34,349 nt of DNA from Candidatus Eiseniibacteriota bacterium (GTDB taxonomy: Bacteria > Orphanbacterota > Orphanbacteria > Orphanbacterales > Orphanbacteraceae). The DNA lies in NCBI GenBank assembly GCA_043809585.1, contig JBDROZ010000119.1, forward strand, positions 1 to 34,349. The letters are read 5' to 3'. This document shows positions 289-33,908 of this stretch, in pieces; positions within the stretch are counted from its first letter, which is position 1; each line of letters opens with the position of its first letter. The position numbers were made by a program, and so were the translations under genes. The notes beneath the pieces are model-generated. The model was not told where the DNA came from. It saw nothing but the letters and a program-made list of their open reading frames with translations, and did no database searches.

Positions 289-294
289 ATCCCT

Positions 295-9921: not shown

Positions 9922-10006
9922 GCCTCCGCCCCCGGTCCCATCGAGTTTCTGCTGCGGCCCTGAATCGCGGGCGGCGAGGCGGTTCTTCTTCCCGTGACGA
10001 TCAAGG

Positions 10007-12832: not shown

Positions 12833-13147
12833 TACTCTCCGCGGCGTCCGGGTAACCCCTGACGCCAAGAACGAAAAAACGGATCAATCCTTACCAAGGA
12901 TCGGCCCCGGCGCCGGTTCTCTTGAGAGGATTCACCGGCCCGAACCCCTTGCGGCTCGGCGAATTGGGGGACACTACACTTAAGCTCGATTCTTCAAAGG
13001 ACTCACACGTCTCGGGCCGAGTCGGGAGCCGGGGGGGCAGGCGCCGTAGGGGATTCGTGCCTAATCCGGGTCGAGGTTAGGCATTGTGTCTTCCGAATTC
13101 GGCATGGCATGATCGGGTCGGATCCCCTAGCCGAGAGGAGTGTCAGG

Positions 13148-13951: not shown

Positions 13952-13953
13952 GA

Positions 13954-13984
13954 AGCCCTCCTCCGGCAAGGCCGGAAGAGGGCT
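13954..13984. terminator. Hairpin between convergent genes (probable bidirectional terminator)
   Basis: AGCCCTC-CTCCGGC-AAG-GCCGGAA-GAGGGCT between stops at 13951 (+) and 14012 (-). U tails are weak. Confidence 0.5.
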
Positions 13985-14011
13985 CGATCGTTCTCAGCGT
14001 CTTCGCCCGCC

Positions 14012-18993: not shown

Positions 18994-19002
18994 ATTATAG
19001 CA
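18994..19002 (-). promoter_or_regulatory. Extended -10 promoter for the leftward C25 gene
   Basis: The minus strand reads TG-C-TATAAT, a perfect extended -10, in an AT-rich patch. Confidence 0.6.
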
Positions 19003-19144
19003 TAGCCCGTAACGAGATTACAGGATAAGGTGCGTCCCCCACTCGCGTCCTCCGGCGGTGACTTTCCGACTCGTTTCCTCGGATGCGGATGGCGGGCGGG
19101 CCCCCTCATCCACGGGGCGCGGGGAGGGGGGGGGAATTCCGGGC

Positions 19145-19173
19145 TTCCGATCGCGCCTAAGTTATGGTATAAT
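19145..19173 (+). promoter_or_regulatory. Extended -10 promoter for the rightward operon
   Basis: TG-G-TATAAT at 19165-19173, with a weak -35 TTCCGA 17 nt upstream. Confidence 0.6.
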
Positions 19174-19373
19174 TTCGCTTAATCGTGTTCTGCCTCGGCC
19201 CGTCCTCCAGGGGATCGGCCGCGTGGAAATCGGGCGGGAGGAGGCCCGGCCGCCGGGCGTTCCCGGTCTTTTTCGCGCGCGATCCGCGGCGGACCGCCGG
19301 ATCCGACCGCGGAACCGCCGTTCGATGATCGCTCCCCCGATTCTGGGTCTTTTACCGTCTAGGAGAATGAGTG

Positions 19374-21011
19374 ATGAGAAAGGGGCTCTGTCTGGCCGTC
19401 CTCCTGCTCTCCGCCGCCGTCGCCCACGGAGGGACCATCCAGGTACCGGGCGATTACACGCTCCTCCAGGCCGCCCTCGACGCGGCGGTCTCCGGTGACA
19501 CGGTGCTCGTCGCCGCCGGCACCTATGACTCCCTCTTCTATCCGCCGGGCGCCGACACGGCGCGGTGCGTGGCCTACATGAAGACCGGCGTCACCCTGCT
19601 CGGCGCGGGCATGGGCCAGACCGTAATCGACGCCCAGAACCAGGGCCGGGGGATCCTCTGCTACGGGGTTTCGAGCGGCCGCATCGAGGGCCTCACGGTC
19701 ATCAACGCCTTCTCCGAGATTACCGGCGCGGGAATCTTCTGCACCCAAGGCTCTTCCCCGACCATCGCCGGCTGCGAGGTCAAGGAGTGCGGGGACGGGG
19801 GGATCATCTGCACCTTCGCCTCGAACCCCCTCATCACGGACTGCGTGATCAAGGACAACATCTACAAGTCGGGCGGAGGCATCGCCATCGAAGACGGCGC
19901 CTCCCCCACCGTGGTGAACACTCTCATCTACCGGAACAGGGCGCCCGAGGCGGGCGGGGTCCTCGTCCGCGGAGCGGGCTCGTCGGGGCTGTTCATCAAC
20001 TGCGTGATCGACAGCAACTATCTGAACGCCAGCGACGCGCCCGGCGGCGGCTTCGCCGTGCGGGACGGCGGCCTCACGGTCCGGAACTGCCGGGTGACGC
20101 GGAACCGGGCGACCGGCGCCGGGGGCGGGTTCGATATCCGCTCGGCCGGGTCCCCCGTCGTGATCGATTCGACCATCATCGCGGACAACTCGACGGCGGA
20201 CGCCTTCGGTCCCGGCGGCGGCCTCTACATGGAGCTCTCCGACCTCGAGCTGACGTTCTGCGAGATCACGGGCAATTCGGCGCCGGGAACGGACTCCCTG
20301 AACGACGGGGGGGGCATCTTCGCCTTTCTCCCGAGTTCGATGACCATGACGAACTGCACCGTCGCCGACAATTCGACCCGTCCCCTCGGCCGGGCCGGCG
20401 GCATCTACTGTTGGTTCGCGAACCCGACCATCGAGAAGTCGATCCTCGCCTTCAACCACCTCAAGGGGATCCACTGCGAAGACTCGACCCCGATCCTCTC
20501 GTGCACCGACATCTACGGGAACGACAACGACGCCCTCTGCGGGACCGACAACGGCGGAAACTTCTCGGCCAATCCGGGGTTCTGCGACCGGCCGAATGGG
20601 GACTACACCCTGGCCGGGACGTCCCCGTGCCTGCCGGGCAACCACCCGGACAGCGAACCGTGCGGATTGATCGGAGCATACGGTGTGGGGACCTGCGCCA
20701 TCGGGGTCGCCGATGGATCGGGCGCCGAGAGCATGATCCCCTTCGATCACCAGGCGAGCCCGAACCCCTTCGGGCCGAGCACGACGATCCGGTTCGGCAT
20801 GACGAATGCCGGACGGGCAAGCGTGGCGATCTACAACATCCAGGGGCGCCGGGTCCGAATGTTCGAAGAGGGCGAACTCGCCGCCGGCCCGCACCAGGTT
20901 TCCTGGGACGGACGGGACGATTCGGGGCGCGCCCTCTCCTCGGGCGTCTATTTCTACCGGGTGACGGAAAACGGTCGCGGGAGGAGCGGACGGCTCGTGT
21001 TGACGCGGTAG
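19374..21011 (+). CDS. Secreted right-handed parallel beta-helix protein with C-terminal FlgD-like domain
   Basis: AGGAG RBS and signal peptide. IQVPGDY..LQAALDAAVSGDTVLVAAGTY, repeated GGGI.....P.I..C.I..N units, NPGFC..GDYTL..SPC, and C-terminal PNPF..WDG..SGVYFYR. Confidence 0.85.
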   Translation: MRKGLCLAVLLLSAAVAHGGTIQVPGDYTLLQAALDAAVSGDTVLVAAGTYDSLFYPPGADTARCVAYMKTGVTLLGAGMGQTVIDAQNQGRGILCYGVSSGRIEGLTVINAFSEITGAGIFCTQGSSPTIAGCEVKECGDGGIICTFASNPLITDCVIKDNIYKSGGGIAIEDGASPTVVNTLIYRNRAPEAGGVLVRGAGSSGLFINCVIDSNYLNASDAPGGGFAVRDGGLTVRNCRVTRNRATGAGGGFDIRSAGSPVVIDSTIIADNSTADAFGPGGGLYMELSDLELTFCEITGNSAPGTDSLNDGGGIFAFLPSSMTMTNCTVADNSTRPLGRAGGIYCWFANPTIEKSILAFNHLKGIHCEDSTPILSCTDIYGNDNDALCGTDNGGNFSANPGFCDRPNGDYTLAGTSPCLPGNHPDSEPCGLIGAYGVGTCAIGVADGSGAESMIPFDHQASPNPFGPSTTIRFGMTNAGRASVAIYNIQGRRVRMFEEGELAAGPHQVSWDGRDDSGRALSSGVYFYRVTENGRGRSGRLVLTR

Positions 21012-21100
21012 TTTCTTCTTCCGAACATGAGGTCAACAACGCGGTTGGTTTCGATCACCTCCGCGTTGTATGGTGGAGGTGGTGTTCCGGGAGGAGAACG

Positions 21101-24100
21101 ATGCAAAAGACACTGCTTACAGCTCTGATCACGTCACTGTCATTCACCGCCCCCGCGGGGGCCTCCGACATCGAATCCAGAGGGCCGGCGCCCGCGGTCT
21201 CCGTCGAGAACGGCGAGGGCCGGGTCCGTCTCGTCTTCGAGACCGGCGGGGAGATCCCCGACCGGCCGGTCCTCCGGCTGGTCCCCCTCCCCTCCGGAGC
21301 GACCACGCCCCGGGTCGGGGCCACCGGGAAAACCGGAACGGTCGAATTGGGGCAACCGATGGTGGCACGGGGGGTGACGCTTCTTCCGGTCACCCTGTCC
21401 CCCGAGGTCTTCGCCGCCGGGAAGAAGGCCGGATCCCCCGTGGCGGTGGAGATCCTCTTCGACGAGGGGGCCGCGAAAACTTCGAATCTCCGGGCCGCGG
21501 CGCATAGTCGCGGCTTTTTTTCCGCCTATGGCGACTTATTGGCCGGTGCCGGAAAAGTGGGAGGCGATGAGGAGGGGAGCTTCCTCATCATCACCGCCCC
21601 GCAGTTCGCGGCGGCCATCGAGCCTTTCGCGGCCTGGAAGAGGCAGATGGGATTCGAGACGATCGTGGCCACCACGAACGAGACCGGCACGGGGAACGAG
21701 TCGATCCGCGCCTGGATCCGTAACCTGTACGACACCGCCGAGAACCCGCCGCTCTACCTGGTTCTCGTGGGGGACGTGGAGCAGATTCCCGGGTTCGACT
21801 ACCACCAGAGCGTCACGGACCTCCCCTACGTCCTCATGGACGGCGACGATTTCCTTCCCGACCTCGAGGTGGGCCGCTTCTCGGCGAGTACCGTGAATCA
21901 CGTGCAGACCATCGTCGCGAAGACCGTCGGGTACGAGAAGACCCCCTCGGTCAGCGACACGACCTGGTTCCGGAAGGCCCTCCTGGTGGCGGGGAACTCC
22001 AGTTCGAGCACCCCCGTTCCTGTCTCCCGGTGGTGTCGGGAACAGCTCTACGGCGCGGGATTCGCCAAGGTGGACACGGTCTTCTACCCGCCCCACTGGG
22101 GGACCGGATTCCCCTTCATCAAGGCCTCCATCGACGCCGGAGTCTCGATCGTCAGCTACCGGGGATGGGCCTACGGGTGGCGGGGCTGGGAACCGCCCCA
22201 CTTCACGGTCGACGAAATCCCGAGCCTGAACAACGGGTGGAAGCTCCCCCTCGTCTGCAGTTTCGTCTGCGAAAACAACAATTACACCTTCCCCGAGTGC
22301 TTCGGCGAGGCGTGGATCCGGGCGGGATCGGCGGCGGCGCCGAAGGGGGCGGTCGCCTTCATCGGGAACAGCGAGCACTGGTCCCACACGAGGCACAACG
22401 ACGCGGCGGCGATCGGGACCTTCCGGGCGATCGCCGAGCGGGGAGAACGGCGGCTCGGCCAGCTCCTCCTCTCGGCGAAGAACGAGATCCACCGCTCGTT
22501 CCCCGACATGATCTACTACGCAACTCACGAAGACAACTCGGTCGAGTTCTACTACTACATCTACAGCCTCCTCGGCGACCCCTCCCTGGAACTCCTCACC
22601 GAGAGGCCCCGGGAGCTGACCGTGAACGGCCCCGACTCGATCGCCCTCGGAAGCAACTACTACTGGGTGGAGGTGCTGGACGGGGCGACGGGCGACTGGA
22701 TCGAGGGAGCCCGGGTCGGCCTCAGCCAGAACGGCGAGTTTCTCGCCTCCGGGTTCACCGACGAGGTGGGGGAAGCGGTGTTCTTCGCCGATTTCGACGA
22801 CGACTCCGCCCCCGTGGTGGTGACCGTCACCGGCCGGGGCCTGAAGGCGCGGCAGAAGACGCTTCCCGTGGTGTCGAACCGGACCCACCTCGGCATCGCC
22901 GGCGTGACGATCTACGACGACGGCACCGGTTCCAGTTCGGGGAACGGCGACGGGATCGTGAACCCCGGAGAGACGATCGCCATCGAGGCCGCGCTGAAGA
23001 ACGATAACGCCCAGGGGACGGCGACGTCGGTCGTCGCCTTCCTGAACGCGAAGGACCTCTTCGGCACGCTCGAGGCGGCCCTGATCGACTTCCCGAACAT
23101 ACCCGCCGGGGGCACGGCCGTCGCCGAGGCGACATGGACGGCGGTGTTCGACGGCGATCTCGAGGACGGATTCGTCGCCCGTTTCCGCCTCTCCGCTTTC
23201 ACGGGAGGGACGGAAACGGTGAACGGCTTCTCGCTCGCCGTGGAAGCGCCGGACGTCATGTACGAGCGACACCTCCTGGACGGCGACGGGATCCTCGATC
23301 CCGGCGAGACGTCCTCCCTGGCGGTGACGGTCGGGAACGAGGGCGCCGCGGACGGGAACGGCGTGACTGCCGTTCTCCGGAGCGAGACGCGCCACCTCGC
23401 GGTCGTCACCGACTCGATCGCCTCCTTCGGGAACCTCCCGCCCGGCGCGGGCGGGACCTCCGGTTCGCCCTTCACGATCGAGGCGACCGACAGCGCCGCC
23501 GTCGGCCAGGCGGCGGTCTTCACCCTTCTCCTCACGACGGACGGCGGTTACGAGATGACCACGTCCTTCAGCGTCCGGATCGGCGACGCGGACCACCGGG
23601 CCCCCCTCGGACCGGACCGGTACGGGTACTACGCCTACGACAACTCGGACACGGACTACCCGGACCACGCCCCGCTCTTCGAATGGAAGCCGATCTCCTC
23701 CGCCTACGGCGGGCCGGGCACCCGTCTCGCTCTCGAGGACGACGACTCGGCCGTGCTCCCCCTCGGCTTCGACTTCCGTTACTACGGCAAGACCTATGTC
23801 GAAATCCTCGTCTCCGACAACGGCTGGATCTCCTTCGACACCGAGGCCTCGTACGACTTCTACAACTGGTCCCTGCCGAACCTCTACGGGCCGGGGGCCA
23901 CGGTGGCGCCCTTTTGGGACAATCTGGACCCGGAGAAGAAGTACCAGGGGCGGCCGGTCGGCGACGGAATCTACTTCTATCCCGACGCGGTGAATCACCG
24001 ATTCATCGTCGAGTGGAGCCGCATCGGCAACGTGCGGCCCCATCACGAAAACCGGAGCGACTGGGACGAGCTCCAGACCTTCCAGGCGATCCTCCTCGAT

Positions 24101-24889
24101 CCCGACTACTACCCGACGCCCACCGGGGACGGGATCATCCGCTTCCAGTACAAACATGTCGTGAACAACGACTACGAGCGAATGTACGCCACCGTGGGGA
24201 TCGAGAACGAGGCGGAGAACGACGGCCTCGAGTACACCTACACCAACATGTACCCCGCGGCGGCCGCCCCTCTCTCGTCGGGCCTGGCGATCGACTTCAC
24301 CACCGCGCCCCCCCGCTACCGGCCGTACGATCTGGCGGCATTCAAGGCCCAGGCGACGGACGACGGGCTGCTCCTCTCCTGGACGCCCTCGGACGGCAGG
24401 CCCCGGGGCGCCACCGTGGTTTACCGGGCGGGCGGGGAGGGCCCGTACGAGGCCCTTCCCGGCGCGATGCTCCCGCCCGAGGCGACGGCCTATCTCGACG
24501 AGACCGCCGACCCGGCGAAGCCGTGGTCGTACAAGATCGGTTCCTTCGACCCTGTCGGACGGGAGACCGTGCTCGGGCCCTTCGTTTACGCGGGCAAGGC
24601 GGAGGGGGCCCTCCTCCTCTCCCTCGGCGTGACGGGACCGAACCCGTCCCGGGGGAATTCGATCCTTCGCTATTCGCTCCCCACCGAGGGCCGGGCCAAG
24701 CTCCGGATCTTCACCGTCACGGGCCGGCTCGTCCGGACCCTCGTGGACGGCGAGGTGGGCGCCGGCGCCTGGGTCGTCGATTGGGACGGCCGGGACGACC
24801 GCGGGAGAGAGCTCCCGAGCGGCATTTACTTCGGAAGGTTGGAAGTGGGGGCGGAGCGCCGGAACGCGAAGCTCACACTCCTCCGGTAG
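21101..24889 (+). CDS. Second C25 (gingipain-fold) peptidase-like protein with C-terminal FlgD-like domain
   Basis: GAGGAG RBS, ATG 21101, signal peptide. YLVLVGDVEQIP, DLPYVLMDGDDFLPDLEVGRFS, FVCENN, YSLLGDPS, GNGDGIVNPGETI and GPDRYGYYAYD. C-terminal GPNP..WDG..SGIYF. The listed ORF start 19565 is an upstream extension. Confidence 0.85.
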   Translation: MQKTLLTALITSLSFTAPAGASDIESRGPAPAVSVENGEGRVRLVFETGGEIPDRPVLRLVPLPSGATTPRVGATGKTGTVELGQPMVARGVTLLPVTLSPEVFAAGKKAGSPVAVEILFDEGAAKTSNLRAAAHSRGFFSAYGDLLAGAGKVGGDEEGSFLIITAPQFAAAIEPFAAWKRQMGFETIVATTNETGTGNESIRAWIRNLYDTAENPPLYLVLVGDVEQIPGFDYHQSVTDLPYVLMDGDDFLPDLEVGRFSASTVNHVQTIVAKTVGYEKTPSVSDTTWFRKALLVAGNSSSSTPVPVSRWCREQLYGAGFAKVDTVFYPPHWGTGFPFIKASIDAGVSIVSYRGWAYGWRGWEPPHFTVDEIPSLNNGWKLPLVCSFVCENNNYTFPECFGEAWIRAGSAAAPKGAVAFIGNSEHWSHTRHNDAAAIGTFRAIAERGERRLGQLLLSAKNEIHRSFPDMIYYATHEDNSVEFYYYIYSLLGDPSLELLTERPRELTVNGPDSIALGSNYYWVEVLDGATGDWIEGARVGLSQNGEFLASGFTDEVGEAVFFADFDDDSAPVVVTVTGRGLKARQKTLPVVSNRTHLGIAGVTIYDDGTGSSSGNGDGIVNPGETIAIEAALKNDNAQGTATSVVAFLNAKDLFGTLEAALIDFPNIPAGGTAVAEATWTAVFDGDLEDGFVARFRLSAFTGGTETVNGFSLAVEAPDVMYERHLLDGDGILDPGETSSLAVTVGNEGAADGNGVTAVLRSETRHLAVVTDSIASFGNLPPGAGGTSGSPFTIEATDSAAVGQAAVFTLLLTTDGGYEMTTSFSVRIGDADHRAPLGPDRYGYYAYDNSDTDYPDHAPLFEWKPISSAYGGPGTRLALEDDDSAVLPLGFDFRYYGKTYVEILVSDNGWISFDTEASYDFYNWSLPNLYGPGATVAPFWDNLDPEKKYQGRPVGDGIYFYPDAVNHRFIVEWSRIGNVRPHHENRSDWDELQTFQAILLDPDYYPTPTGDGIIRFQYKHVVNNDYERMYATVGIENEAENDGLEYTYTNMYPAAAAPLSSGLAIDFTTAPPRYRPYDLAAFKAQATDDGLLLSWTPSDGRPRGATVVYRAGGEGPYEALPGAMLPPEATAYLDETADPAKPWSYKIGSFDPVGRETVLGPFVYAGKAEGALLLSLGVTGPNPSRGNSILRYSLPTEGRAKLRIFTVTGRLVRTLVDGEVGAGAWVVDWDGRDDRGRELPSGIYFGRLEVGAERRNAKLTLLR

Positions 24890-24897
24890 CCGGGGAC

Positions 24898-26046
24898 ATG
24901 AGACGAATGGGCGGGATCATGAGATTGGGCATATTCGCGGCGGCGGCGATGATGATTCTCGGCCACGCTCCCGGCGCCGCCGGGGCGCCCGCCGAGGAAT
25001 CGTCGAAGGGGAAGCCGTGGTACGATTCGGTCAAGTTCTCCGGGAAATTCGCCTTCGAGGCCGCCTACGACGACAACGTGGTCCACTACTCCGGCGTCGA
25101 TCTCGCCGAGTTCGAATCGGTTCTGAACGTCGGTAAGTACTCGATCACCAAGGCGGGGGACTGGATCCTCCGGCCCCGGCTCGAGCTCGAGGCGAAGACG
25201 AAGGGCTGGGGGGGGGAGAGCCTCTCCCTCGATGCGACCCTCTCGTCGTGGCGGTACGTCTGGAACGACATCAAGAACAACGAATCGTACGACGTGACGC
25301 TGAAGCACGGCGCGTGGGGGGTGAGCAACTTTCAGCTCGGCTTCTATCACGCTCCCATGTACTACATCCGGAATTTCCGGGACCGGGACCCCTTCACCAG
25401 CATCGCCACGCCTCTTGGTTACAAGGACTTCTCCCTTACGTCGAACTCGATGTATCTCGGGTTCTGGAAGAAGTACACGAATAGGATCCGGGGGAAGATC
25501 GAGCTCCGGCGGGCGTGGCGCTACTTCAACCAGGCGTTCATGGAGAACGACAACTGGGAGTGGCGGATCACGGGCTACGTCCAGTACTCCCTCTTCGACT
25601 TCCTGGAGGTCAAGGGGGAGTACGCCTACAGCGACGTGAAGGGACGGGGGGCCGACTCGGCCGGCGAGACGAGGGAGAACTCGGACGACAGCGACCCCTC
25701 TTACGAGCGGGACGCCTACGCCTTCGATCTTCTGTACGCCTTCCCGAAGAAGAATCCGCTCCGTTTGAGCGGGCTCAATCTGAAATTCGACTACCAGATC
25801 TACTATTTCACGAGCGCGAAACGCATCGAGGAGGATCCGTTCCACGTGGGGCGGAAGGACAAGGTCTACCGTTTCGAAGCGATAGGGAACACGCGGCCCG
25901 TCCTCGGCCAGGTGAGCCTCCAGGGAGGCTACCGGTACACGGAGCGGACATCCACCGCCCCCGAGGCGTCGGCGGGCGAGGATATCGGCGAAGAGAAGGA
26001 CTACAAGGACAACCGTTACTGGTTCGGGGTCGAGTACCCGTTCTAG
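24898..26046 (+). CDS. Probable outer-membrane beta-barrel protein
   Basis: Signal peptide (starts possible at 24898/24907/24919). YDDNV early motif, many aromatic amphipathic strands and a C-terminal ...RYWFGVEYPF resembling a BAM beta-signal. Confidence 0.6.
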   Translation: MRRMGGIMRLGIFAAAAMMILGHAPGAAGAPAEESSKGKPWYDSVKFSGKFAFEAAYDDNVVHYSGVDLAEFESVLNVGKYSITKAGDWILRPRLELEAKTKGWGGESLSLDATLSSWRYVWNDIKNNESYDVTLKHGAWGVSNFQLGFYHAPMYYIRNFRDRDPFTSIATPLGYKDFSLTSNSMYLGFWKKYTNRIRGKIELRRAWRYFNQAFMENDNWEWRITGYVQYSLFDFLEVKGEYAYSDVKGRGADSAGETRENSDDSDPSYERDAYAFDLLYAFPKKNPLRLSGLNLKFDYQIYYFTSAKRIEEDPFHVGRKDKVYRFEAIGNTRPVLGQVSLQGGYRYTERTSTAPEASAGEDIGEEKDYKDNRYWFGVEYPF

Positions 26047-26071
26047 CACGAGCAAGAGGAGAGCATCGACG

Positions 26072-28528
26072 ATGAGAAACCCTTCGGACAGGGGAAGGAA
26101 CCGGGGAACGGGCCGGGCGGTGGTCCTCTCGCTGGCGGCGGCCCTCCTTTTCGGATGCGGGGCCCAAGAACTCTACAAGCCGCCGACGGCACCTTACCAG
26201 GTGGTGGGCCGGCTCGAGCTGCCGAGCGAGGTGGAGGACGTGGCCGTACTCGGCGATTACGCGTACCTCGCCGCCGGACAGGCGGGGCTCATCATCGTCG
26301 ACATCTCGGACCCGACGAAACCGGTCCTCGTCGAGACGCTCGGAACCGTGAAGTACGCCGAGAAGATCGAGGTGGTGAGCGTCAGCTCCGGCGGGGGCGT
26401 CACGGACATCGCCTTCGTCGTCGAGGGGACCGAGGGGATCACCACCTATGACGTCACGGACCCGGAGAACGCCTACTCTTTCAACCAGGGAACGACGGCG
26501 GTCGACGGGATCAGCATCTTCGTCGAGCTTCCCGAGGACCCGGCCGACCCGTACGTGATCTATCTCGCCGAGAGCTGGAAGGGCCTCCGGATCTTCGAGT
26601 CCGACCCGACCACCCCGGGACTGCTCCAGTACAACGGCGTCTTCGCCGACACCCGAGGATCGGCGCGGGCCGTCGCCGTCCAGGACGGTTTCGCCTACGT
26701 GGCGGACGACCAGATGGGTCTGGCGATCCTCGATGTCCGCACGCGGGTTCTCGGTTCGGTGAAGATGGTCTCCTCGTGCGACACGAAAGGTGAGGGGAGC
26801 GGGATCGCGGTCCACGGAGACTACGCCTACATCGGTGACTACGAGAACGGGCTGACCGTGGCCGAGATCCGCCGGGAGCCGCTCGTGGAAGGGGGCGAGC
26901 CGATGCCCGTCCCCTACGTGGTCGGCCACCTCGCCCTCGGAGGACGGTGCCAGACCACGGTCTACCGGGACGGCAAGGTCTTCCTCTCCGCCCAGGACGG
27001 CGGCGTCCACATGGCGGACGTATCCGATCCGACGGCGCCCCGGTACCTCGGCACGGTGATCACCTCCGACGCCACCGGGATCGCGCTCGCCAAGTCGGGC
27101 CTCGTGGTCGTCTCGGACCGCCACGAGGGGCTTCTCGTCCTCGCCGGAGGGGGCGCGTTCAGCGACGCCGTCCCCCCCGCGGCGGTGACCGACCTCGCCG
27201 CGGCGGGGGTCGACTCGACGAGGATCCGCCTCGCCTGGACGGCGCCGGGGAACGACGGGCTCTCCGGAACGGCGACGGTCTACGACATCCGCTACGCCGC
27301 CGATTCGCTCGCCTCCGAGGCCGACTACGACTCGGCGACGGCGGCCGAAGGGGAACCGTCCCCGGCGTACCGGGGAACGCCCCAGACTTTCGACGTGACC
27401 GGCCTCGAACCCGGGACCCGCTACTGGTTCGCCCTGAAGACGGCCGACGCCTCCCAGAACTGGTCCCCCCTCTCGAACACGGCGGCGGCGTATACCCCGA
27501 GCGGGAACGTCCCCCCCACCCTCTCCGGCGGGACGCTCCGCCCCGAGGCGGGCACGTCCGACACGACCTTCGTCTTCGAGGTGACCTACCGGGACGGCGA
27601 CGGCGACGCCCCGGCGGAAGCCCGCCTGCTCCTCGACGGGGCCCCCCTCGCCATGACCGAAGTGAGCGGCGACTACGATGAGGGCGCCCTCTTCCGGTAC
27701 GAGGGGTCCTTCGGAACCGGCGTCCACCACTACGCCTTCTCTTTCAAGGACCCGAGCAACCCGGCGGTGACGACCGCGCAGGCGACGGGGCCGTACGTCG
27801 GAGAGGCGATCTTCCGGATGGGAAGCCCGGCAAACGAGCCGGGGCGGGACACGGACGAGACGCTCCACACCGTGGTCTTCACGTACACCTTCGAGATCAA
27901 CGATCACGAGGTGACCCAGGGCGAGTACCGGAACTTGATGGGAACGAATCCTTCCCGGATCGTCGGGGACAATCTGCCCGTGGAGAACGTGACCTGGCTC
28001 GACGCGGTCCTCTACTGCAACGCCGTCTCGAGCTTCCTCGGATTCACTCCCGCCTACACGGTCAGCGGATCGATCATCACGTGGAACAGGGACGCCGGCG
28101 GCTACCGCCTTCCGACCGAGGCGGAGTGGGAGATCTTCTGCCGGGCCGGAACGAACACGGCCTTCTCCTCCGGCGGCCTGACCGAGCAGGGGTGCGCCGT
28201 GGACCCCGTGCTCGACCCGATCGGATGGTACTGCGGCAACGCGGGGACCACGACCCACGCGGCGGGATTGAAGAGCGCGAACCCGTGGAACCTGTTCGAC
28301 ATGCACGGAAACGTCCGGGAGTGGTGCTGGGACTGGTACACGGAGGACCTCGGGACGGGCGTCGGCGTGGATCCCGCGGGACCCGGAGGGGGCTCGCAAC
28401 GCGTGGTCCGCGGCGGCTCCTGGTTCGACTTCGCCCGGGAATGCCGGAGCGCGTCCCGTGCGCCCTATTGGCCGAACTCGAAGGACGACGTCGTCGGCTT
28501 TCGACTGGCCCGGACCGTCGTCGACTGA
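26072..28528 (+). CDS. Lipoprotein with LVIVD repeats, FN3 domain and C-terminal FGE-sulfatase/SUMF1-like domain
   Basis: Lipobox LLFGC. Repeats such as VAVLGDYAYLAAGQAGLIIVDISDPTKP. FN3 IRLAWTAPG..GLEPGTRYWF. C-terminal domain FRMGS, YRLPTEAEWE, DMHGNVREW and RGGSW..GFRLA. Confidence 0.85.
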   Translation: MRNPSDRGRNRGTGRAVVLSLAAALLFGCGAQELYKPPTAPYQVVGRLELPSEVEDVAVLGDYAYLAAGQAGLIIVDISDPTKPVLVETLGTVKYAEKIEVVSVSSGGGVTDIAFVVEGTEGITTYDVTDPENAYSFNQGTTAVDGISIFVELPEDPADPYVIYLAESWKGLRIFESDPTTPGLLQYNGVFADTRGSARAVAVQDGFAYVADDQMGLAILDVRTRVLGSVKMVSSCDTKGEGSGIAVHGDYAYIGDYENGLTVAEIRREPLVEGGEPMPVPYVVGHLALGGRCQTTVYRDGKVFLSAQDGGVHMADVSDPTAPRYLGTVITSDATGIALAKSGLVVVSDRHEGLLVLAGGGAFSDAVPPAAVTDLAAAGVDSTRIRLAWTAPGNDGLSGTATVYDIRYAADSLASEADYDSATAAEGEPSPAYRGTPQTFDVTGLEPGTRYWFALKTADASQNWSPLSNTAAAYTPSGNVPPTLSGGTLRPEAGTSDTTFVFEVTYRDGDGDAPAEARLLLDGAPLAMTEVSGDYDEGALFRYEGSFGTGVHHYAFSFKDPSNPAVTTAQATGPYVGEAIFRMGSPANEPGRDTDETLHTVVFTYTFEINDHEVTQGEYRNLMGTNPSRIVGDNLPVENVTWLDAVLYCNAVSSFLGFTPAYTVSGSIITWNRDAGGYRLPTEAEWEIFCRAGTNTAFSSGGLTEQGCAVDPVLDPIGWYCGNAGTTTHAAGLKSANPWNLFDMHGNVREWCWDWYTEDLGTGVGVDPAGPGGGSQRVVRGGSWFDFARECRSASRAPYWPNSKDDVVGFRLARTVVD

Positions 28529-28544
28529 TCAGGAGGACCACCCC

Positions 28545-29654
28545 TTGAACGAGGAACTTCGGACGACCCGGTTTCATTTCATCGATCAGTACCGCGGGCT
28601 GATCGGCGTCATGATGCTTCTCGGCCACAGCAACTACTACTTCAACTACATCTGGAAGCAGTTCGACCCCCTCGATCCGCTCTTCGGCGAGTGGGGGCAG
28701 TTCGCCCTCCGGTACATGGGCTACCTCTGCGCGCCCGGCTTCCTGATGATGAACGGCGCCATGGTCTGGTGGGCCTACAAGCGGCGGGTGGAGAAGGGCG
28801 TCGCCGACTGGAGCGCCCGGTGGCACCTGATCCAGCGCGGGCTCTTCCTCGTGCTCGTGCAGGTCACATGGGTGAACTCGTCGTGGAGCGGCTTCGACCG
28901 CTTTCGCCCTGCCCACCTCGGCATCATCGCCTGCATCGGGCTCTCCATGGTCCTCCTCACGCTGATCGTGAACTACAAGTGGCCCGTCCGCCTCGGCGTG
29001 GCCCTCGCCTGCTTCCTGATCCACCCGCTTCTCATCCACATCCACTACGACGCGGACGTGACGTGGCAACGGGTGATCATGCAGACCTTCGTCGACTCGG
29101 GGGACTGGAACAAGTACCCGGTCATTCCCTGGTTCGGCCTCGCCACGATGGGTTCGGTCATGGCGAGCGGGTGGCTCCGGATCTGGAAAACGACCCGGGA
29201 GCGGTTCCTCTGGAGCCTCGGCATCGGCCTCGCCGCGATCGGACTCGCGACCGTCGTCCGGCTGGCGGGGGGCTACGGGAACATCTGGCCCTTCCAGGAG
29301 ATCGGGCACTATTCGTTCTTCCTCGACAACAAGTACCCGCCGAGTCTCTACCACAACCTCTGGTTCTTCGGTTCCGTGACGATGGGCGTCGGCGTGATGG
29401 CGCTCCTCGGCCACTGGGAGCCGAATCTTCCGGCGCCCCTCGGCCTCGTCGGGAAGGTGCCCCTCTTCTTCTACTGCGTCCACATCGGGATTCTCGGCAT
29501 CTTTTCGAAGCGCCTCGGTTTCTTCTATCACGAGGGGGCGGTGGCCGCGTCCCTCTTCGGGATGATCGTCATGCTCGGGGTGATGATGCCCCTCACGGTC
29601 TGGTTCGGCCGGGTCAAGAAGAAGAGCACGAACTACATCATCAAGATGATCTGA
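28545..29654 (+). CDS. HGSNAT/DUF1624-like multi-pass membrane acyltransferase
   Basis: AGGAGG RBS then TTG 28545. IDQYRGL..MMLLGH, LCAPGF, RGLFL, YPVIPW and KYPPSL motifs, with about 9-10 hydrophobic segments. Confidence 0.75.
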   Translation: MNEELRTTRFHFIDQYRGLIGVMMLLGHSNYYFNYIWKQFDPLDPLFGEWGQFALRYMGYLCAPGFLMMNGAMVWWAYKRRVEKGVADWSARWHLIQRGLFLVLVQVTWVNSSWSGFDRFRPAHLGIIACIGLSMVLLTLIVNYKWPVRLGVALACFLIHPLLIHIHYDADVTWQRVIMQTFVDSGDWNKYPVIPWFGLATMGSVMASGWLRIWKTTRERFLWSLGIGLAAIGLATVVRLAGGYGNIWPFQEIGHYSFFLDNKYPPSLYHNLWFFGSVTMGVGVMALLGHWEPNLPAPLGLVGKVPLFFYCVHIGILGIFSKRLGFFYHEGAVAASLFGMIVMLGVMMPLTVWFGRVKKKSTNYIIKMI

Positions 29655-29670
29655 CGGGAGGATGGGAACC

Positions 29671-30162
29671 ATGAAGTTCGATCGGAAAGCCAAGGTCCTG
29701 GTCCTCTCGTTCCTGATCGCCTTCGCCGCCGGGTGCGGCGACCGGGAGGAGTTCGGCTCGGAAGGAGAGAACGGGACGACGGTCTTCGCGCCGAAGAAGG
29801 GCGATGGCGTCACGGCGGCCATCACGTTCTGCGAAAAGGTCGGGAGCAAGACGGGAAAGCCGATCGGGGAAGGAACCGTGTTCATCGCGGGCGAGGACGA
29901 AAAGGTCCGGGCCCTCGTGGAGATCGGGAACGCCCGGGCCCTCGGCGAGAGGGAGCTGATGTTTCATCTGATGTGGATCGACCCCGAGGGCAACTCCTTC
30001 TACACCAAGAGGATCGATATCACACCGGAAGGCGGGGAGGCCGAGATCCAGAGCGCCATCTCGATTCCCCCTGACAAGAGGGAGCCGGGGATCTACACTT
30101 TGCGGGTCTTCCTCTTCCGCGAGCGGATCGCCGAGAAGACCTTCGAGCTCATCGCGCCGTAA
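29671..30162 (+). CDS. Small lipoprotein with predicted beta-sandwich (Ig-like) domain
   Basis: GGAGG RBS, lipobox FAAGC, and a W..P.G....GIY.LRV pattern. Function unknown. Confidence 0.7.
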   Translation: MKFDRKAKVLVLSFLIAFAAGCGDREEFGSEGENGTTVFAPKKGDGVTAAITFCEKVGSKTGKPIGEGTVFIAGEDEKVRALVEIGNARALGERELMFHLMWIDPEGNSFYTKRIDITPEGGEAEIQSAISIPPDKREPGIYTLRVFLFRERIAEKTFELIAP

Positions 30163-30216
30163 GCGCGGGCCGGACCGGCCCTCGGGCCCGGAGGATCTCC
30201 CCCACGGAGTAAGACC

Positions 30217-31386
30217 ATGACCCTCTTCCTGATCCTTCTGGTCTTCGTGCTGCTCGTCTGGACGTGGGAGGCGATCAAGCTCCGCCGGGCCCTCCGGGCG
30301 ATTCCGACCCGGATCCACGTGAACGGGAGCCGGGGGAAATCGTCGGTGACGCGGCTGATCGCCGCGGGCCTCCGGGAGGGCGGGATCAGGACCGTGGCGA
30401 AAACGACCGGCAGCCGGGCGAGGTACATTCACCCGGAAGGCGAGGAGGAGCCGATCGTCAGGCTCGGCTCGCCGAACATCTGCGAGCAGGTCGGCGTGCT
30501 CGACCGGGCGCGCCGGGAGAAGGCGGAGGCGATCGTGATGGAGTGCATGGCCCTCCGGCCCGATCTTCAGATCATCACGGAGAAACACATCCTCCGTTCC
30601 ACCATCGGCGTCATCACCAACGTGCGGGCCGATCACTTGGACGTGATGGGGCCGACGACGGCGGACGCGGCGATCGCCATCTCCTCCACCCTGCCGAAGC
30701 GGGGCGCCGCCGTGATCGGTCCTACGAAACACGCGGAAATCTTGGAGGCGCGGGCCCGGGAAAGGGGATCCTCGTTCGAGATGGCCGACCCGAGGGGAAT
30801 TCCGGAGGGGGCGATGAGGGGTTTCGCGTACATCGAGCACGAGGAGAACGTGGCCACCGCCCTCGCCGTGACCCGCCGTCTCGGCATCGACGACGCGACC
30901 GCGCTCCGGGGCATGTACGGGGTCACCCCCGATCCGGGGGCGTGCACCCGCCGGGAGTTCCTCCACCGGGGGCGCCCGATCGAGTTCATCAACATCTTCG
31001 CGGCGAACGATCTCGAGTCGACCATCACCATCTGGAACCGCGTCGGCCTCTTGCCGGGGGGCGGGATTCCGAGCGTGGCGCTCCTCAATCTCCGGGGAGA
31101 CCGGATCGACCGCTCCCTTCAGTTCGCGGAGGCGGTGGAGGAGGCGCTCGTCGCGGATCACTACGTGATCATCGGCGAGGTGCGGGACCGGATTTACCGG
31201 CGGTTCGTCCGGCGGGTCCCGAAAGAGAAGCTCCACATCCTCGGAAAGGTCACCGCCGCGGAGACCTTCGACCGGATCGCCGAGATCGACCCGAGGGGGG
31301 CGCGGGTCGGAGGCGTCGGCAACATCGGGGGGCTCGGGCACGGAATTCTGGTCTGGGTCGAACGGACGGAGGGCGCGTCATGTTGA
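30217..31386 (+). CDS. pgsB: Poly-gamma-glutamate synthase (Mur-ligase-like) PgsB/CapB
   Basis: N-terminal TM helix. IHVNGSRGKSSVTRLI, AKTTG, ECMALRPDLQ, ITNVRADHLDVMG, PDPG, FAANDLEST, RGDRIDRS and GNIGG. Confidence 0.93.
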   Translation: MTLFLILLVFVLLVWTWEAIKLRRALRAIPTRIHVNGSRGKSSVTRLIAAGLREGGIRTVAKTTGSRARYIHPEGEEEPIVRLGSPNICEQVGVLDRARREKAEAIVMECMALRPDLQIITEKHILRSTIGVITNVRADHLDVMGPTTADAAIAISSTLPKRGAAVIGPTKHAEILEARARERGSSFEMADPRGIPEGAMRGFAYIEHEENVATALAVTRRLGIDDATALRGMYGVTPDPGACTRREFLHRGRPIEFINIFAANDLESTITIWNRVGLLPGGGIPSVALLNLRGDRIDRSLQFAEAVEEALVADHYVIIGEVRDRIYRRFVRRVPKEKLHILGKVTAAETFDRIAEIDPRGARVGGVGNIGGLGHGILVWVERTEGASC

Positions 31387-31844
31387 TCGCCGAAGCGATC
31401 GGGATCGGTCTGGTGGTCAGCCTTCTCTTCGTGGAGGCCGTCGGATTCGCCGCGGGGGGCTTCGTGGTGCCGGGCTACATCGCCCTCTACCTCGACTCCC
31501 CCCTCCGGCTCCTCGGCACCCTGCTCGCCGCGACGGCGGCCTACCTCAGCGTGCGCGTCGGAAGCCGTTTCCTGCTCATCTACGGCCGGCGGGCCCTCGT
31601 CTTCGCCGTCCTCACGGGGTTCCTCTTCGGCACCCTCACGTCGCGCATCCCTCCCCTCGATTTCCTTTCCGCCGACACGTCGCTCCAGGCGATCGGCTAC
31701 ATCATCCCCGGCCTGCTCGCGTACTGGATGAACCGCCAGGGGATCGTGCGGACCCTTTCGGCCATGATGGTCGCCGCCGTGATCGTCCGCTTCGCGCTCA
31801 TCATCTTCCACGGAGGATCGGTCCTTGAGACGGTTGCTCTATAG
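31380..31844 (+). CDS. pgsC: Poly-gamma-glutamate biosynthesis membrane protein PgsC/CapC
   Basis: ATG 31380 overlaps the pgsB end. IGIGLVVSLLF.E..G..AGGFVVPGYIAL, LIYGRR and IGYIIPGLLA. Confidence 0.92.
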   Translation: MLIAEAIGIGLVVSLLFVEAVGFAAGGFVVPGYIALYLDSPLRLLGTLLAATAAYLSVRVGSRFLLIYGRRALVFAVLTGFLFGTLTSRIPPLDFLSADTSLQAIGYIIPGLLAYWMNRQGIVRTLSAMMVAAVIVRFALIIFHGGSVLETVAL

Positions 31845-33009
31845 CGCCGCGCCGTGGACGAAGCGGGCGGACGTCCTGCTCGTCTTCCTCGCCATCCTCG
31901 GCCTCGTCTTCCACGTGATCGCCGAGGAGACCCGCCGAATCGCGGCCCAGCCCCATCTCATGGACAAGATGGCGGCCGCGACGAATTCGGTCCGCTGCTT
32001 CGAGGCGATCCGGCAGCACCGGATGGGCACGCCGGCGGCGATGGACCGGGAGAACGACCCGGAGGGGAGCGGCCTGATCGGCCAGGAGTTCACCCTCACC
32101 ACCACGGACCGGGGCATTCTCGAGGCGAAGCTGATGTCCGTGAACCCGAACTTCGCGGCCCTCTTCGTCGAGTACTTCCACGAGCTCGGTCTGAAGCCGG
32201 GCGATCCGGTGGCGATCGCCATGACCGGATCCTTCCCGGCCCTCAACATCGCCGTGATCTGCGCCGCCGAAAAGATGGGGCTCCGCCCGATCCCGATCAC
32301 GTCCGTCGGCGCTTCCATGTGGGGGGCGAACGATCCGGAATTCACCTGGCTCGACATCGAGACCCTTCTCCGGGAGCGGGGGCTGATCGAGACGAAGAGC
32401 GTCGCGGCGTCCATCGGCGGGAGCAACGACCGGGGCCGCGGGCTCTCCCCCAAGGGGCGGGAGCTCCTCCGGGAGGCGATCGACCGGAACGGCATACCGC
32501 TCATTCACGAGAGGACCTTGGACGACGCCATCGCCCGGCGGATCGAGATCTTCGAGTACGAAGCGAAGTCCCGGGGCGTGAAGGCGTACGTCAACGTGGG
32601 AGGCGCCGCGGCGAGCATCGGAACCAGCCTGAACGGGGCGCTGATCAAGAGCGGCGTGAACCGCACGCTCCCCTCGTACAACTGGACCATCCGGGGCGCC
32701 CTCCACCACTTCGCCCGGAAACGGGTGCCGGTCATCCACATTCTCCGGATCGAGACCCTGGCGGAACGGGCCGGGTTCCCCGTCTCCCCCGATGACATCC
32801 CCTCCGTCGGGGAGGGAGACATCTTCCACCGGGAGGTGTATGATCTGCGCATCGTCGTTCCCGCCTTTCTCACCTTCTTGATCCTCTGCTTCGGGGTTCT
32901 CCGGGCACGGCACACCGCGGCGGTTCGCGCCCGGGAGAGCGAGGCGGCGAAGGCGGAGCGGAAGGAACGGACGGGGGAAAAGGCGGTCTCGGAAGGGAGT
33001 TCGAATTGA
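31825..33009 (+). CDS. pgsW: Poly-gamma-glutamate system protein (PgsW-like)
   Basis: GGAGG RBS, TTG start, TM helices at both ends. GLIG.EF..TTT.G.LEAK..S.NPNFAA, GDPVAIAMTGSFPALNIA, SVGASMWGANDP and YVNVGG...SIG. Sits directly after pgsBC. Confidence 0.85.
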   Translation: MRRLLYSAAPWTKRADVLLVFLAILGLVFHVIAEETRRIAAQPHLMDKMAAATNSVRCFEAIRQHRMGTPAAMDRENDPEGSGLIGQEFTLTTTDRGILEAKLMSVNPNFAALFVEYFHELGLKPGDPVAIAMTGSFPALNIAVICAAEKMGLRPIPITSVGASMWGANDPEFTWLDIETLLRERGLIETKSVAASIGGSNDRGRGLSPKGRELLREAIDRNGIPLIHERTLDDAIARRIEIFEYEAKSRGVKAYVNVGGAAASIGTSLNGALIKSGVNRTLPSYNWTIRGALHHFARKRVPVIHILRIETLAERAGFPVSPDDIPSVGEGDIFHREVYDLRIVVPAFLTFLILCFGVLRARHTAAVRARESEAAKAERKERTGEKAVSEGSSN

Positions 33010-33908
33010 GAAGGCCACTCCTGGCGCTCGGCCTCGCCGGAGCCCTTCTCGCGTTTGCGGCGGCGGACGCGGGGGCGGCGTCGAAACGCATCCATCCCAC
33101 GAACGACGCGGAGAAGATCACGCTCCGGATCGGCCGGGGCAATTCGACCTATCATGTCGCGACGGCGGAAAAGCCCTTCGAGTTCAAGATCAAGGGGCCG
33201 ACGCCCATCCGCGTACTCTCCCGGCTGCTCTTCGGCGGCGGGACACCCGCGGACCCGACCCGTTACCGGGTCCGTCTGGAGATCGACGGCGTCGAACTCC
33301 GCACGGTCGGGGAAACGACGGGGCCTGCGGGCGACTCCGATTTCGGTGGCGACCCGGTGGGGGACCTTTGCAAGCGGGTCCTCACGATCCCGGCGGGGAC
33401 CCACAAGGTGCGCGTCTATCCGATCGAGCGGGACCTCCGCATCGCCGTCCGCCTCTTCCGGGGGGACGGGCGGACCCGGAAGCCGGTCTGGGTTTCCTAC
33501 GCGCCGGAAACGTACGAGCGGGCGATTCGCCTTCACGCCCGGGATTCGGAGTACACCTACTACCGCTTCAGCACCGGGACCCCCGTGACGCTCTCCGTGC
33601 ACGGCCCCCTCCGCCTGCGGATCATGACCCGCCTCGACTTCGGCGTCGAGCGGGGTTACTACCAGAACTACGCGATCAAGTGTTTCCTCGACGGCGAACT
33701 GATCCGGACCCACAATCTCCGGGCCCGCCCGAGCCACACGTCCAACTACCCCGACCTCCCGGAGATCACGCCGGGCACGGGCGAGACGGTCGAAATGGAA
33801 GTCCCGAAAGGCCTGCACCGCATCGAGATCGGCCTCGATTGCACCACCGGCGAAACCGCTTCGATGCGCATCATGATCCCCAAGAGGGCCGTCACGAACG
33901 GCCGTTAG
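33006..33908 (+). CDS. Secreted hypothetical protein with an internal two-domain duplication
   Basis: TTG overlaps the pgsW stop (TTGA). Signal peptide. Repeats YHVATAEKPFEFKIKGPTPIRVLSRLLF..YRVRLEIDG and YYRFSTGTPVTLSVHGPLRLRIMTRLDF..YAIKCFLDG. Confidence 0.75.
   Translation: MRRPLLALGLAGALLAFAAADAGAASKRIHPTNDAEKITLRIGRGNSTYHVATAEKPFEFKIKGPTPIRVLSRLLFGGGTPADPTRYRVRLEIDGVELRTVGETTGPAGDSDFGGDPVGDLCKRVLTIPAGTHKVRVYPIERDLRIAVRLFRGDGRTRKPVWVSYAPETYERAIRLHARDSEYTYYRFSTGTPVTLSVHGPLRLRIMTRLDFGVERGYYQNYAIKCFLDGELIRTHNLRARPSHTSNYPDLPEITPGTGETVEMEVPKGLHRIEIGLDCTTGETASMRIMIPKRAVTNGR

Follow-up and report, generated by a model that had tools for sequence, protein, structure and literature searches.

The window analysed here, a 34,349-nucleotide (nt) stretch of DNA taken at its full length from a Candidatus Eiseniibacteriota bacterium (contig JBDROZ010000119.1), carries the genes pgsB, pgsC and pgsW of a poly-gamma-glutamate (PGA) synthase amid a set of envelope genes. 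Together they form an array of ten co-directional plus-strand genes (g1 to g10; 19371–33908), with a further gene, gU, divergent from it (Table 1). Comparison with related loci strongly supports the view that pgsBCW and the flanking envelope genes are one conserved system of diderm bacteria and not chance neighbours. We propose, with a probability of about 0.6, that it is a trans-envelope system of diderms of the Fibrobacteres–Chlorobi–Bacteroidetes (FCB) group, which would make PGA or a closely PGA-like polymer, export it and handle it at the cell surface. An earlier inspection of the letters, hereafter the sequence-only reading, had suggested a ten-gene operon for the synthesis, export and display of PGA without capA, capD or capE.

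For the comparison, a PgsW profile built on a six-sequence alignment was run against a collection holding one genome per species and returned 377 relatives, of which the best 80 loci were kept with 10-kb flanks. Partners were counted by phmmer and iterated hidden Markov model searches over all open reading frames (ORFs) of at least 70 amino acids (aa), and a locus is called fully flanked if its sequence extends at least 9 kb beyond pgsW in both directions, which holds for 39 of them (L025 and L081 duplicate contigs that also occur among the loci under G handles, one each). Conservation of the flanking genes beside pgsBCW was the main test that the sequence-only reading had put forward, and it came out in favour of the system. 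X, the product of g10, is encoded in 77 of the 80 loci and in 38 of the 39 fully flanked ones, the barrel g3 in 61 and 33, the LVIVD lipoprotein g4 in 55 and 32, a C25-like protein in 54 and 31, the DUF1624 protein g5 in 45 and 27, g6 in 23 and 15, and the beta-helix protein g1 in 23 and 14, respectively.

Sorted by the labels of their sequence records, the best 80 loci belong to Candidatus Eisenbacteria, which hold the closest PgsW relatives (61–70% identity), Latescibacterota, Krumholzibacteriota, Fibrobacter(aceae), Bacteroidales/Bacteroidota, Lentimicrobiaceae, KSB1, Neomarinimicrobiota, Ignavibacteriales, Zixiibacteriota and Nitrospirota. In four genomes of the window's own family (G003, G004, G007 and G008), all ten genes are kept as far as the contigs reach, with 50–79% protein identity, and gU is also kept in G003 and G007; such synteny alone could reflect descent. 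Gene order differs between lineages: writing B, C, W and X for the last four genes of the array, U for gU and numbers for the others, it reads 1-2-3-4-5-6-B-C-W-X in the window's family, U< 1> 2> B C W X 3 4 5 in Fibrobacteraceae, Krumholzibacteriota and Latescibacterota, U B C W X 3 4' 5 6 in Bacteroidota and B C W X 3 4' U in KSB1 and Neomarinimicrobiota. In two distant genomes (L020 and L022), pgsB, pgsC, pgsW, g10 and g3 are consecutive, and in many loci a gU homologue stands either divergent from g1-g2 or upstream of pgsB. Since the linkage survives these rearrangements at PgsW identities of 37–48%, it points to function rather than inheritance.

Co-occurrence was also examined in a sample of 41 genomes of relatives, the source genome included. 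TIGR04332, the family of PgsW, is found in nine of them, and profile matches to X and to the barrel at E < 1e-30 fall in the same eight of these nine and in none of the 32 genomes without PgsW; the only other X matches are two weak and partial ones (E 5e-5 and 8e-4). One genome, G020, has X, the barrel and pgsBCW at three separate places, all of them present. In the 4.24-Mb source genome, g3 and g5 to g10 are single-copy by tblastn. From these patterns, X and the barrel are almost certainly linked in function to pgsBCW, and the same very probably holds for g4, the DUF1624 gene and the C25-like genes.

The identities that the sequence-only reading had given to the synthase genes hold, all three products scoring above the NCBIfam cut-offs. 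PgsB (g7) matches TIGR04012 with 390.7 bits against a cut-off of 222.7, over profile positions 4–376 of 380, and shows a Mur_ligase_M domain (41 bits) behind its N-terminal transmembrane (TM) helix. PgsC (g8), rich in hydrophobic segments, reaches 118.4 bits on TIGR04011 (cut-off 96.45) and 114.8 bits on Caps_synth_CapC. Directly after pgsB-pgsC, the product of g9 scores 320.7 bits on TIGR04332 against a cut-off of 100, and its two TM helices (13–36 and 337–362) flank an extracytoplasmic domain of ~300 aa. Note that the name PgsW comes from the earlier reading; literature matches to "pgsW" are unrelated. The PgsW profile had no match among PDB sequences at E ≤ 10, and the ESM Atlas held no model of it, returning only other "poly-gamma-glutamate system protein" clusters. 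We also considered PgsW as a diverged CapA and rejected this on an hhalign probability of 0.25% against PGA_cap.

We infer that the product is PGA from family membership and from a preprint on Cloacimonadota, in which a DAPI-stained matrix, interpreted there as PGA, surrounds cells that carry a three-gene CapB-CapC-"PgsF" operon; the preprint calls this operon typical of Gram-negative PGA producers (bioRxiv 10.1101/2025.11.11.687785). PMC4928254 gives removal and transport of the chain as the presumed role of PgsA, with CapD tethering it to peptidoglycan. The premise of the sequence-only reading that Bacillus needs PgsA was too strong, as pgsBC without pgsA yield PGA in B. subtilis upon over-expression (PMC6029982). 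Two observations concern pgs genes outside the window. A second, divergent PgsW paralogue (L024; G025 contig C9, 2939–5626), with no pgsB or pgsC within the 20 kb fetched, lies back-to-back with a gamma-glutamyltranspeptidase (GGT) gene, the only GGT found near any PgsW examined. In an Eisenbacteria metagenome-assembled genome (L035, ~6–10 kb), pgsB, pgsC and pgsW each appear as several partial matches in different frames, which could be assembly frameshifts or a decaying copy.

X belongs to no Pfam or NCBIfam family. Its AlphaFold2 model (mean pLDDT 90.6 from a 51-row alignment) consists of a signal peptide followed by two tandem beta-jelly-roll domains, for which the best PDB matches in Foldseek are tandem CBM51 and CBM22 modules (E 4e-7 to 4e-6), with BcsB chains lower down; whole-chain TM-scores are low (0.2–0.33) because the domain orientations differ. 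Among 1.84 billion entries, the family counts 287 representatives at E ≤ 1e-30, 688 at E ≤ 1e-10 and 1230 at E ≤ 1e-3. Within the top 150, four representative clusters of 671–693 aa (P0027, P0095, P0100 and P0135) are PgsW-X fusions, with TIGR04332 at the N-terminus (297–317 bits) and X at the C-terminus, and P0059 is a fragment of the same kind. In these fusions, the signal-peptide region of X sits between the two halves and would there serve as a third TM helix.

Structure prediction of PgsW (residues 40–345) with X (25–300) gave a median complex score of 0.80, the best of three controls scoring 0.00. In the calibration, the 0.80 mark is reached by 58 of 80 solved complexes but only 2 of 110 mismatched pairs; as the PgsW-X prediction used alignments of our own, this calibration applies to it only roughly. 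At least 94% of contacts are shared between the runs, partner pLDDT is at least 84, and in the predicted interface the second jelly-roll of X meets the PgsW loop 283–290 around N286, a residue invariant in the PgsW family. As we know of no solved complex of these two families and PgsW has no PDB relative, memory of the model is an unlikely source of the score. The 4-nt overlap of the two genes, the fusions and the predicted complex together make it highly likely that PgsW and X associate physically.

The barrel g3 matches no Pfam family, and no NCBIfam family at E ≤ 0.01. It has a signal peptide and a C-terminus ending in YPF, and its AlphaFold2 model (pLDDT 89.6, pTM 0.83) comprises 14 strands. 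Foldseek returned generic porin matches; upon re-alignment with VIA, CymA came out at Z 24.4 (root-mean-square deviation 3.4 Å over 290 residues), followed by OmpG (Z ~20) and the FadL family (Z ~17), while PorV chains reached Z 14.6 (8gl6_F) and 14.2 (6h3i_F). On the predicted structure, g3 appears to be a monomeric 14-strand barrel of the large-pore type, probably neither a PorV nor a known exopolysaccharide porin.

The lipoprotein g4 (lipobox LLFGC) combines three LVIVD repeats with an fn3 and an FGE-sulfatase domain; its homologues in the Bacteroidales, KSB1 and Ignavibacteriales examples are ~340 aa long and have LVIVD repeats only, without the FGE-sulfatase domain, so the conserved element is the propeller lipoprotein. 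g5 scores 51.8 bits on HGSNAT_cat/DUF1624 in Pfam. g6, which matches no Pfam or NCBIfam family, is restricted to Eisenbacteria and Bacteroidota among the fully flanked loci; in several Eisenbacteria genomes (G003, at L016 5936–6355, and L026, L027, L028 and L046) its gene runs opposite to the other genes of the cluster, keeping its place between the DUF1624 gene and pgsB. The secreted protein g1 shows Beta_helix (93.2 bits) and FlgD_ig (44.9 bits) domains behind a signal peptide, and its beta-helix was present in none of the 26 Bacteroidota-labelled loci.

Both g2 and gU carry a Peptidase_C25 domain (PF01364; 198.8 and 136.8 bits, respectively). gU is built of a Propeptide_C25, the C25-like domain, a CarboxypepD_reg domain and a C-terminal FlgD_ig tail for sorting by a type IX secretion system (T9SS). 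g2 matches the sequences of RgpB and Kgp structures with E values of 3e-26 to 2e-24 (RgpB 3.2e-26). The catalytic Cys of RgpB aligns with C390 of g2 and the catalytic His with W356, where gU has a Tyr; the RgpB dyad is taken here to be His211/Cys244, consistent with the chain positions in the g2 alignment. In an alignment of 82 rows, drawn from the 80 loci and the two window proteins, the column of the canonical His holds Trp in 63 rows, Tyr in 12, a gap in 7 and His in none, and that of the Cys holds Cys in 78 and a gap in 4. Residues invariant in this subfamily are E403, H429 (75 of 77 rows), T430 and N433. H429 lies 39 residues downstream of the Cys and is aligned two residues after RgpB Trp284, a residue that presumably lines the S1 pocket, and a relocated catalytic His in the pgs-linked subfamily is possible.

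Three other C25 paralogues of the same genome (one on contig C7, two on C70) keep G-H-G or A-H-G. A further C25-like paralogue, away from pgs genes (contig C84, ~61100–64840, plus strand), is 47% identical to gU and has Phe at the canonical His site. Because Trp or Tyr occupies the place of the catalytic His, the pgs-linked C25-like domains are, as their sequences read, not ordinary C25 peptidases or CapD-like enzymes. The sequence-only reading had the C25-fold protein stand in, together with the barrel, the lipoproteins and the acyltransferase, for CapA, CapD and CapE; the part given to the C25 protein needs revision, the canonical His being replaced in 75 of the 75 rows aligned there.

The tails of these proteins point to the T9SS. 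On TIGR04183 (cut-off 23), g1 scores 31.1 bits, gU 23.5 and g2 21.2, just below, g2 reaching 29.0 on FlgD_ig against a cut-off of 27. A T9SS is encoded elsewhere in the genome, with SprA on contig C72 (sum 532.7 bits) and two true PorU genes on contig C39 (551.2 and 519.8 bits), one of which adjoins the best PorV-like match; the PorV model (NF033710) matches nine places genome-wide, none of them in the window. On the PorU model (NF033707), g2 scores 58.6 bits against a cut-off of 420. The simplest reading of these tails is that g1, g2 and gU are cargo of the genome's separate T9SS and would end on the cell surface. We rejected, as a matter of membership, the idea that g2-g3-g4 are a copy of the T9SS parts PorU/PorV/PorK, in view of the PorU score, the lack of a PorV family match and the CymA-like fold, and keep it as an analogy only. 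In tblastn against the genome, g1, g2 and gU gave 142–161 matches each (161 for g1); if most of them fall on the tail, as we presume, the genome would have an unusually large predicted set of T9SS cargo.

That the locus lacks capA and capD, as the sequence-only reading had stated, is true of the locus itself: none of the ten proteins has a PGA_cap or GGT domain in Pfam or NCBIfam, and GGT is found in 0 of the 80 loci of the best-80 set. It is not true of the genome, in which PGA_cap occurs above cut-off on contigs C115 and C70 (and below it on C47, with 22.4 bits against 27) and one GGT on contig C58. The C70 protein (~107199–109031, minus strand; a 1044-aa frame) has a signal peptide, a PGA_cap domain, a PKD-like region and a T9SS-type tail. 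A PGA_cap protein encoded immediately upstream of pgsB in Ignavibacteriales L092 (5317–7206) shares 44% identity with it, and similar proteins of ~1000–1100 aa are encoded a few kb from pgsBCW-X in Eisenbacteria L030, L033, L034, L035 and L038. A secreted CapA-family protein may thus be a loosely linked further member of the system.

The coordinates in Table 1 come from the ORF listing and start-codon mapping; with 61–71% G+C, the region contains many spurious ORFs. Along g1 to g7, the genes are separated by 89, 8, 25, 16, 7 (16 if g6 starts at its second ATG) and 54 nt, and the overlaps measure 7 nt (g7/g8), 20 nt (g8/g9) and 4 nt (g9/g10), in line with the co-directional order and spacing reported earlier; judged from spacing alone, g1 to g10 would form an operon. 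The export or membrane character ascribed to the members other than pgs genes is likewise borne out, with signal peptides in g1, g2, g3 and g10, lipoboxes in g4 and g6 and a polytopic g5.

Table 1. Features of the pgs region, in coordinates of the window.
Feature	Position	Strand	Description	Basis or remark
gU	14012..18850	-	giant C25-like surface protein	divergent from g1
TGCTATAAT	18994..19002	-	putative extended -10 of gU	read from sequence
TGGTATAAT	19165..19173	+	putative extended -10 of the ten-gene array	read from sequence
Leader hairpin	19252..19277 (hairpin 19252-19267)	+	terminator-like hairpin and T run in the ~200-nt 5' leader	pattern scan
g1	19371..21011	+	secreted right-handed beta-helix protein, T9SS type-A sorting tail	Pfam, NCBIfam
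g2	21101..24889	+	1262-aa C25-like surface protein, signal peptide, FlgD_ig tail	Pfam, NCBIfam
g3	24898..26046	+	14-stranded outer-membrane beta-barrel, candidate polymer exit channel	predicted structure
g4	26072..28528	+	lipoprotein, LVIVD beta-propeller + fn3 + FGE-sulfatase (C-lectin-like) domain	Pfam, lipobox
g5	28545..29654	+	polytopic inner-membrane protein HGSNAT_cat/DUF1624, putative transmembrane acyltransferase	TTG start
g6	29662 (or 29671)..30162	+	small lipoprotein, lipobox FAAGC	no family match
g7	30217..31386	+	PgsB, ATP-dependent amide ligase, N-terminal TM helix	TIGR04012
g8	31380..31844	+	PgsC membrane subunit	TIGR04011
g9	31825..33009	+	PgsW, "poly-gamma-glutamate system protein"	TIGR04332
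g10 (X)	33006..33908	+	secreted protein, two tandem jelly-roll (CBM-like) domains	AlphaFold2 model

The extended -10 element proposed earlier for the array is there, and the block TATGGTATAATTTCGCTTA around it is kept in G003, a relative of another genus, in an alignment where the rest of the spacer has diverged; a two-hexamer promoter scan does not list it. The block ATTATAGCATA (18994–19004) is kept in all three aligned relatives, and its minus-strand reading gives a second extended -10 facing gU. The position of this conserved element makes it most likely that gU starts at the ATG at 18850, opening with the signal peptide MRRIALLCLL, and not at the GTG at 18985. Since the divergent gU belongs to the same conserved set, the start of the feature at 19145 in the sequence-only reading was drawn too narrowly.

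The claim that no intrinsic terminator lies inside the array is very nearly right, though not to the letter. A pattern scan found 13 terminator-like hairpins against 8.0 ± 3.6 in shuffles, i.e. no excess; hairpins with T runs do occur in the leader and within g2. The leader hairpin, which could be an attenuator, is not obviously conserved in G003 or G007. The one in the g2 coding region, a 10-pair hairpin followed by T7 around codons 131–139 (21492–21516, plus strand), could have arisen by chance or mark a site of attenuation within the gene. No Rfam family reached its gathering threshold anywhere in the window, the 5' leader included. Positions 1–14000 of the window hold unrelated genes (a PEMT-like methyltransferase, DUF4846, a DDE-transposase-like ORF, a pterin dehydratase-domain protein, glycogen phosphorylase and, on the minus strand, a GAF/PAS regulator); the transposase-like ORF (437 aa, 2595–3908, plus strand), ~10 kb upstream of the pgs system, has a weak DDE domain (22.2 bits against a cut-off of 23).

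On the reading that we propose, PgsB, a membrane-tethered amide ligase, would polymerise glutamate with PgsC at the inner membrane; the periplasmic domain of PgsW would then dock X, a protein of polymer-binding type, which would carry the nascent chain across the periplasm. The CymA/OmpG-like barrel and the outer-membrane LVIVD-propeller lipoprotein would pass the chain through the outer membrane, and that these two form the outer-membrane exit is somewhat favoured by the data above. Modification, either of the polymer or of an acceptor, may fall to the DUF1624 membrane protein. Finally, g2 and gU, with the beta-helix protein in some phyla, would reach the surface through the T9SS and there hold, trim or attach the polymer. 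Any specific version of this last step, be it retention, trimming or coupling of the polymer by the C25-like and beta-helix proteins, is less likely than not. A further reading, in which PgsBC-PgsW-X feeds PGA through the CymA-like barrel and the C25-like subfamily couples it covalently to surface proteins or T9SS cargo, is distinctly unlikely.

Several points weigh against this trans-envelope reading. Both the identity of the polymer and the role of every component are putative. The structural matches of the barrel are generic 14-strand channels, none of them a known polymer exporter, and BcsC, PgaA and PelB come only among its weaker Foldseek matches, at TM-scores normalised to the query of 0.37–0.44. 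Nothing indicates the substrate of the DUF1624 protein, PGA having no obvious acyl acceptor except its N-terminus. The canonical His is missing from the C25-like domains, hence enzymatic anchoring is speculative, and the PGA_cap and GGT genes elsewhere in the genome could supply CapA- and CapD-like functions. As to linkage, an Eisenbacteria subgroup (L030, L031, L035 and L038) has only B-C-W-X within 10 kb (L033 has also g5 and g6), and in L100 neither X nor the barrel nor g4 is encoded. The loci compared are the 80 whose PgsW is closest to that of the query, and the remaining 297 of the 377 relatives may lack the partners.

Three other explanations were weighed. The locus could be an attachment system, in which a gamma-glutamyl polymer anchors T9SS cargo as anionic lipopolysaccharide (A-LPS) does, or is built onto the giant C25-like proteins, with the C25-like domain as transpeptidase. 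PorU, a C25-related sortase, joins cargo to A-LPS (PMC8545088); no passage found in that paper or in PMC12365241 gives its catalytic residues. C25-like genes with T9SS tails do stand beside pgsBCW in 31 of the 39 fully flanked loci, with the Cys kept in 78 of the 78 rows that have a residue there, H429 nearly so and E403 and N433 invariant; the extended cluster is seen in T9SS-bearing FCB phyla, and the source genome encodes very many tail-bearing proteins, going by the g1 matches. Yet g2 falls far below the PorU cut-off in a genome that has two true PorU genes elsewhere, the canonical His is gone, and the C25-like gene takes a different position in KSB1 and Neomarinimicrobiota. Moreover, the Nitrospirota and Zixiibacteriota loci read B-C-W-X-barrel with no C25-like gene in range, and the core therefore works without a C25-like protein. 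We consider this explanation unlikely.

Alternatively, only pgsB-pgsC-pgsW-X might be functional, the barrel, lipoproteins, DUF1624, C25-like and beta-helix genes being a separate module of envelope proteins and T9SS cargo that lies nearby. The B-C-W-X-only Eisenbacteria subgroup, the lineage restriction of g6 and g1, and the possibility that synteny inside the window's family is simple descent would fit this. It is at odds with the retention of the barrel and g4 in 33 and 32 of the 39 loci across phyla at 37–48% PgsW identity and in differing gene orders, with the strong barrel matches being confined to 8 PgsW-bearing genomes of 41 (one of them unlinked), and with the barrel and DUF1624 genes being single-copy. 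By our estimate, with ~7 C25 paralogues in 4.24 Mb, the chance of one falling within a 20-kb span is ~3%, against the 31 of 39 observed; such a minimal unit is very unlikely. A retained polymer appears just as improbable: X would bind and hold a periplasmic or envelope gamma-glutamyl polymer, serving as osmoprotectant, metal buffer or nitrogen store, with the barrel as a channel for its uptake or turnover. In favour of this, the prediction for X is a soluble periplasmic protein, CymA and OmpG, whose structures come nearest to the barrel, mediate uptake, and the beta-helix and peptidase-like proteins could serve turnover. Against this, the order B-C-W-X-barrel-lipoprotein mirrors the inner-to-outer layout of synthase-dependent exporters, the T9SS-tailed, surface-targeted partners imply an extracellular polymer, and the matrix interpreted as PGA in Cloacimonadota lies outside the cells.

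How does the system compare with those already described? With the PgsBCA(E) system of Bacillus and the CapBCADE system of B. anthracis it shares PgsB and PgsC above equivalog cut-offs, encoded by adjacent, overlapping genes, and a third membrane protein with a large extracytoplasmic domain encoded directly after pgsC. It differs in having neither PGA_cap (PgsA/CapA) nor a GGT-type CapD, its third gene belonging to TIGR04332, which is unrelated to PGA_cap, and in serving a two-membrane envelope with an added barrel, lipoproteins, a periplasmic jelly-roll protein and T9SS-delivered surface proteins. The Gram-negative capB-capC-"pgsF" producers, as far as the sources cited describe them, have the same core of pgsB, pgsC and a third gene in diderms without pgsA. 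Fusobacterium nucleatum is reported as a Gram-negative producer with such an arrangement (Candela 2009, as cited in PMC4928254), and the Cloacimonadota share the FCB grouping with carriers of the present cluster. These descriptions end at three genes, and the term "outer membrane" occurs nowhere in the preprint (10.1101/2025.11.11.687785). The likeness is one of gene arrangement, and "PgsF" may or may not be TIGR04332.

The synthase-dependent exopolysaccharide systems (BcsABC, PgaABCD, Alg8/44-AlgK-AlgE and Pel) have the same layout of inner-membrane polymerase, polymer-binding periplasmic module tied to the synthase, outer-membrane barrel and lipoprotein, and BcsB, which appears among the Foldseek matches of X, also has jelly-roll domains. 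This is an analogy only, as there is no sequence homology to the present parts: the locus has no tetratricopeptide-repeat scaffold, its product would be a polyamide made by an ATP-dependent ligase and not by a glycosyltransferase, and its CymA/OmpG-like barrel of 14 strands is unlike the larger barrels of those systems, which have 16–18 strands. The attachment complex of the T9SS (PorU, PorV, PorZ and PorQ) likewise brings together a 14-strand barrel, a beta-propeller protein and a C25-related protein that keeps its C-terminal tail, and its parts work with an anionic surface polymer. Here, however, g2 fails the PorU model while true PorU and PorV-like genes lie on contig C39, the barrel fits CymA far better than PorV, and the propeller protein g4 is a lipoprotein without a sorting tail. 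With the gingipain-type C25 peptidases, the pgs-linked proteins have in common the Pfam domain and the position of the catalytic Cys, and gU also the propeptide; they differ in the residue at His211 of RgpB, Trp in g2 and Tyr in gU, and in their nearly invariant H429.

A full-text literature search found no paper that links pgsBC to X, barrel, LVIVD, DUF1624 or C25-like genes, no account of PGA passage across an outer membrane, no mention of TIGR04332 or "poly-gamma-glutamate system protein", and none that joins T9SS with polyglutamate. The synthase core is known, and so, at least by annotation, is a third, non-CapA gene in Gram-negative producers; what is new is a conserved, multi-phylum and uncharacterised export and display apparatus around this known synthase.

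PGA synthesis is understood almost entirely from monoderm Bacillus, and passage of the polymer through a diderm envelope and its retention at the surface are undescribed in the literature searched. The present locus offers a candidate parts list for both: PgsW with X, the 14-strand barrel, the LVIVD lipoprotein, the DUF1624 membrane protein and the C25-like surface proteins without the canonical His. It gives context to four families that had no function, namely X, the barrel, g6 and TIGR04332. As the set recurs in at least eight named FCB lineages, among them Bacteroidales and Fibrobacteraceae from many habitats, the proposal is testable by genetics and reconstitution. If the coupling reading were true, PGA would play the anchoring role that A-LPS has in Porphyromonas. 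A Gram-negative export module of this kind could be useful for PGA production, and, going by the distribution of the cluster, matrices of PGA type may be far commoner among uncultured anaerobic and soil bacteria than has been assumed.

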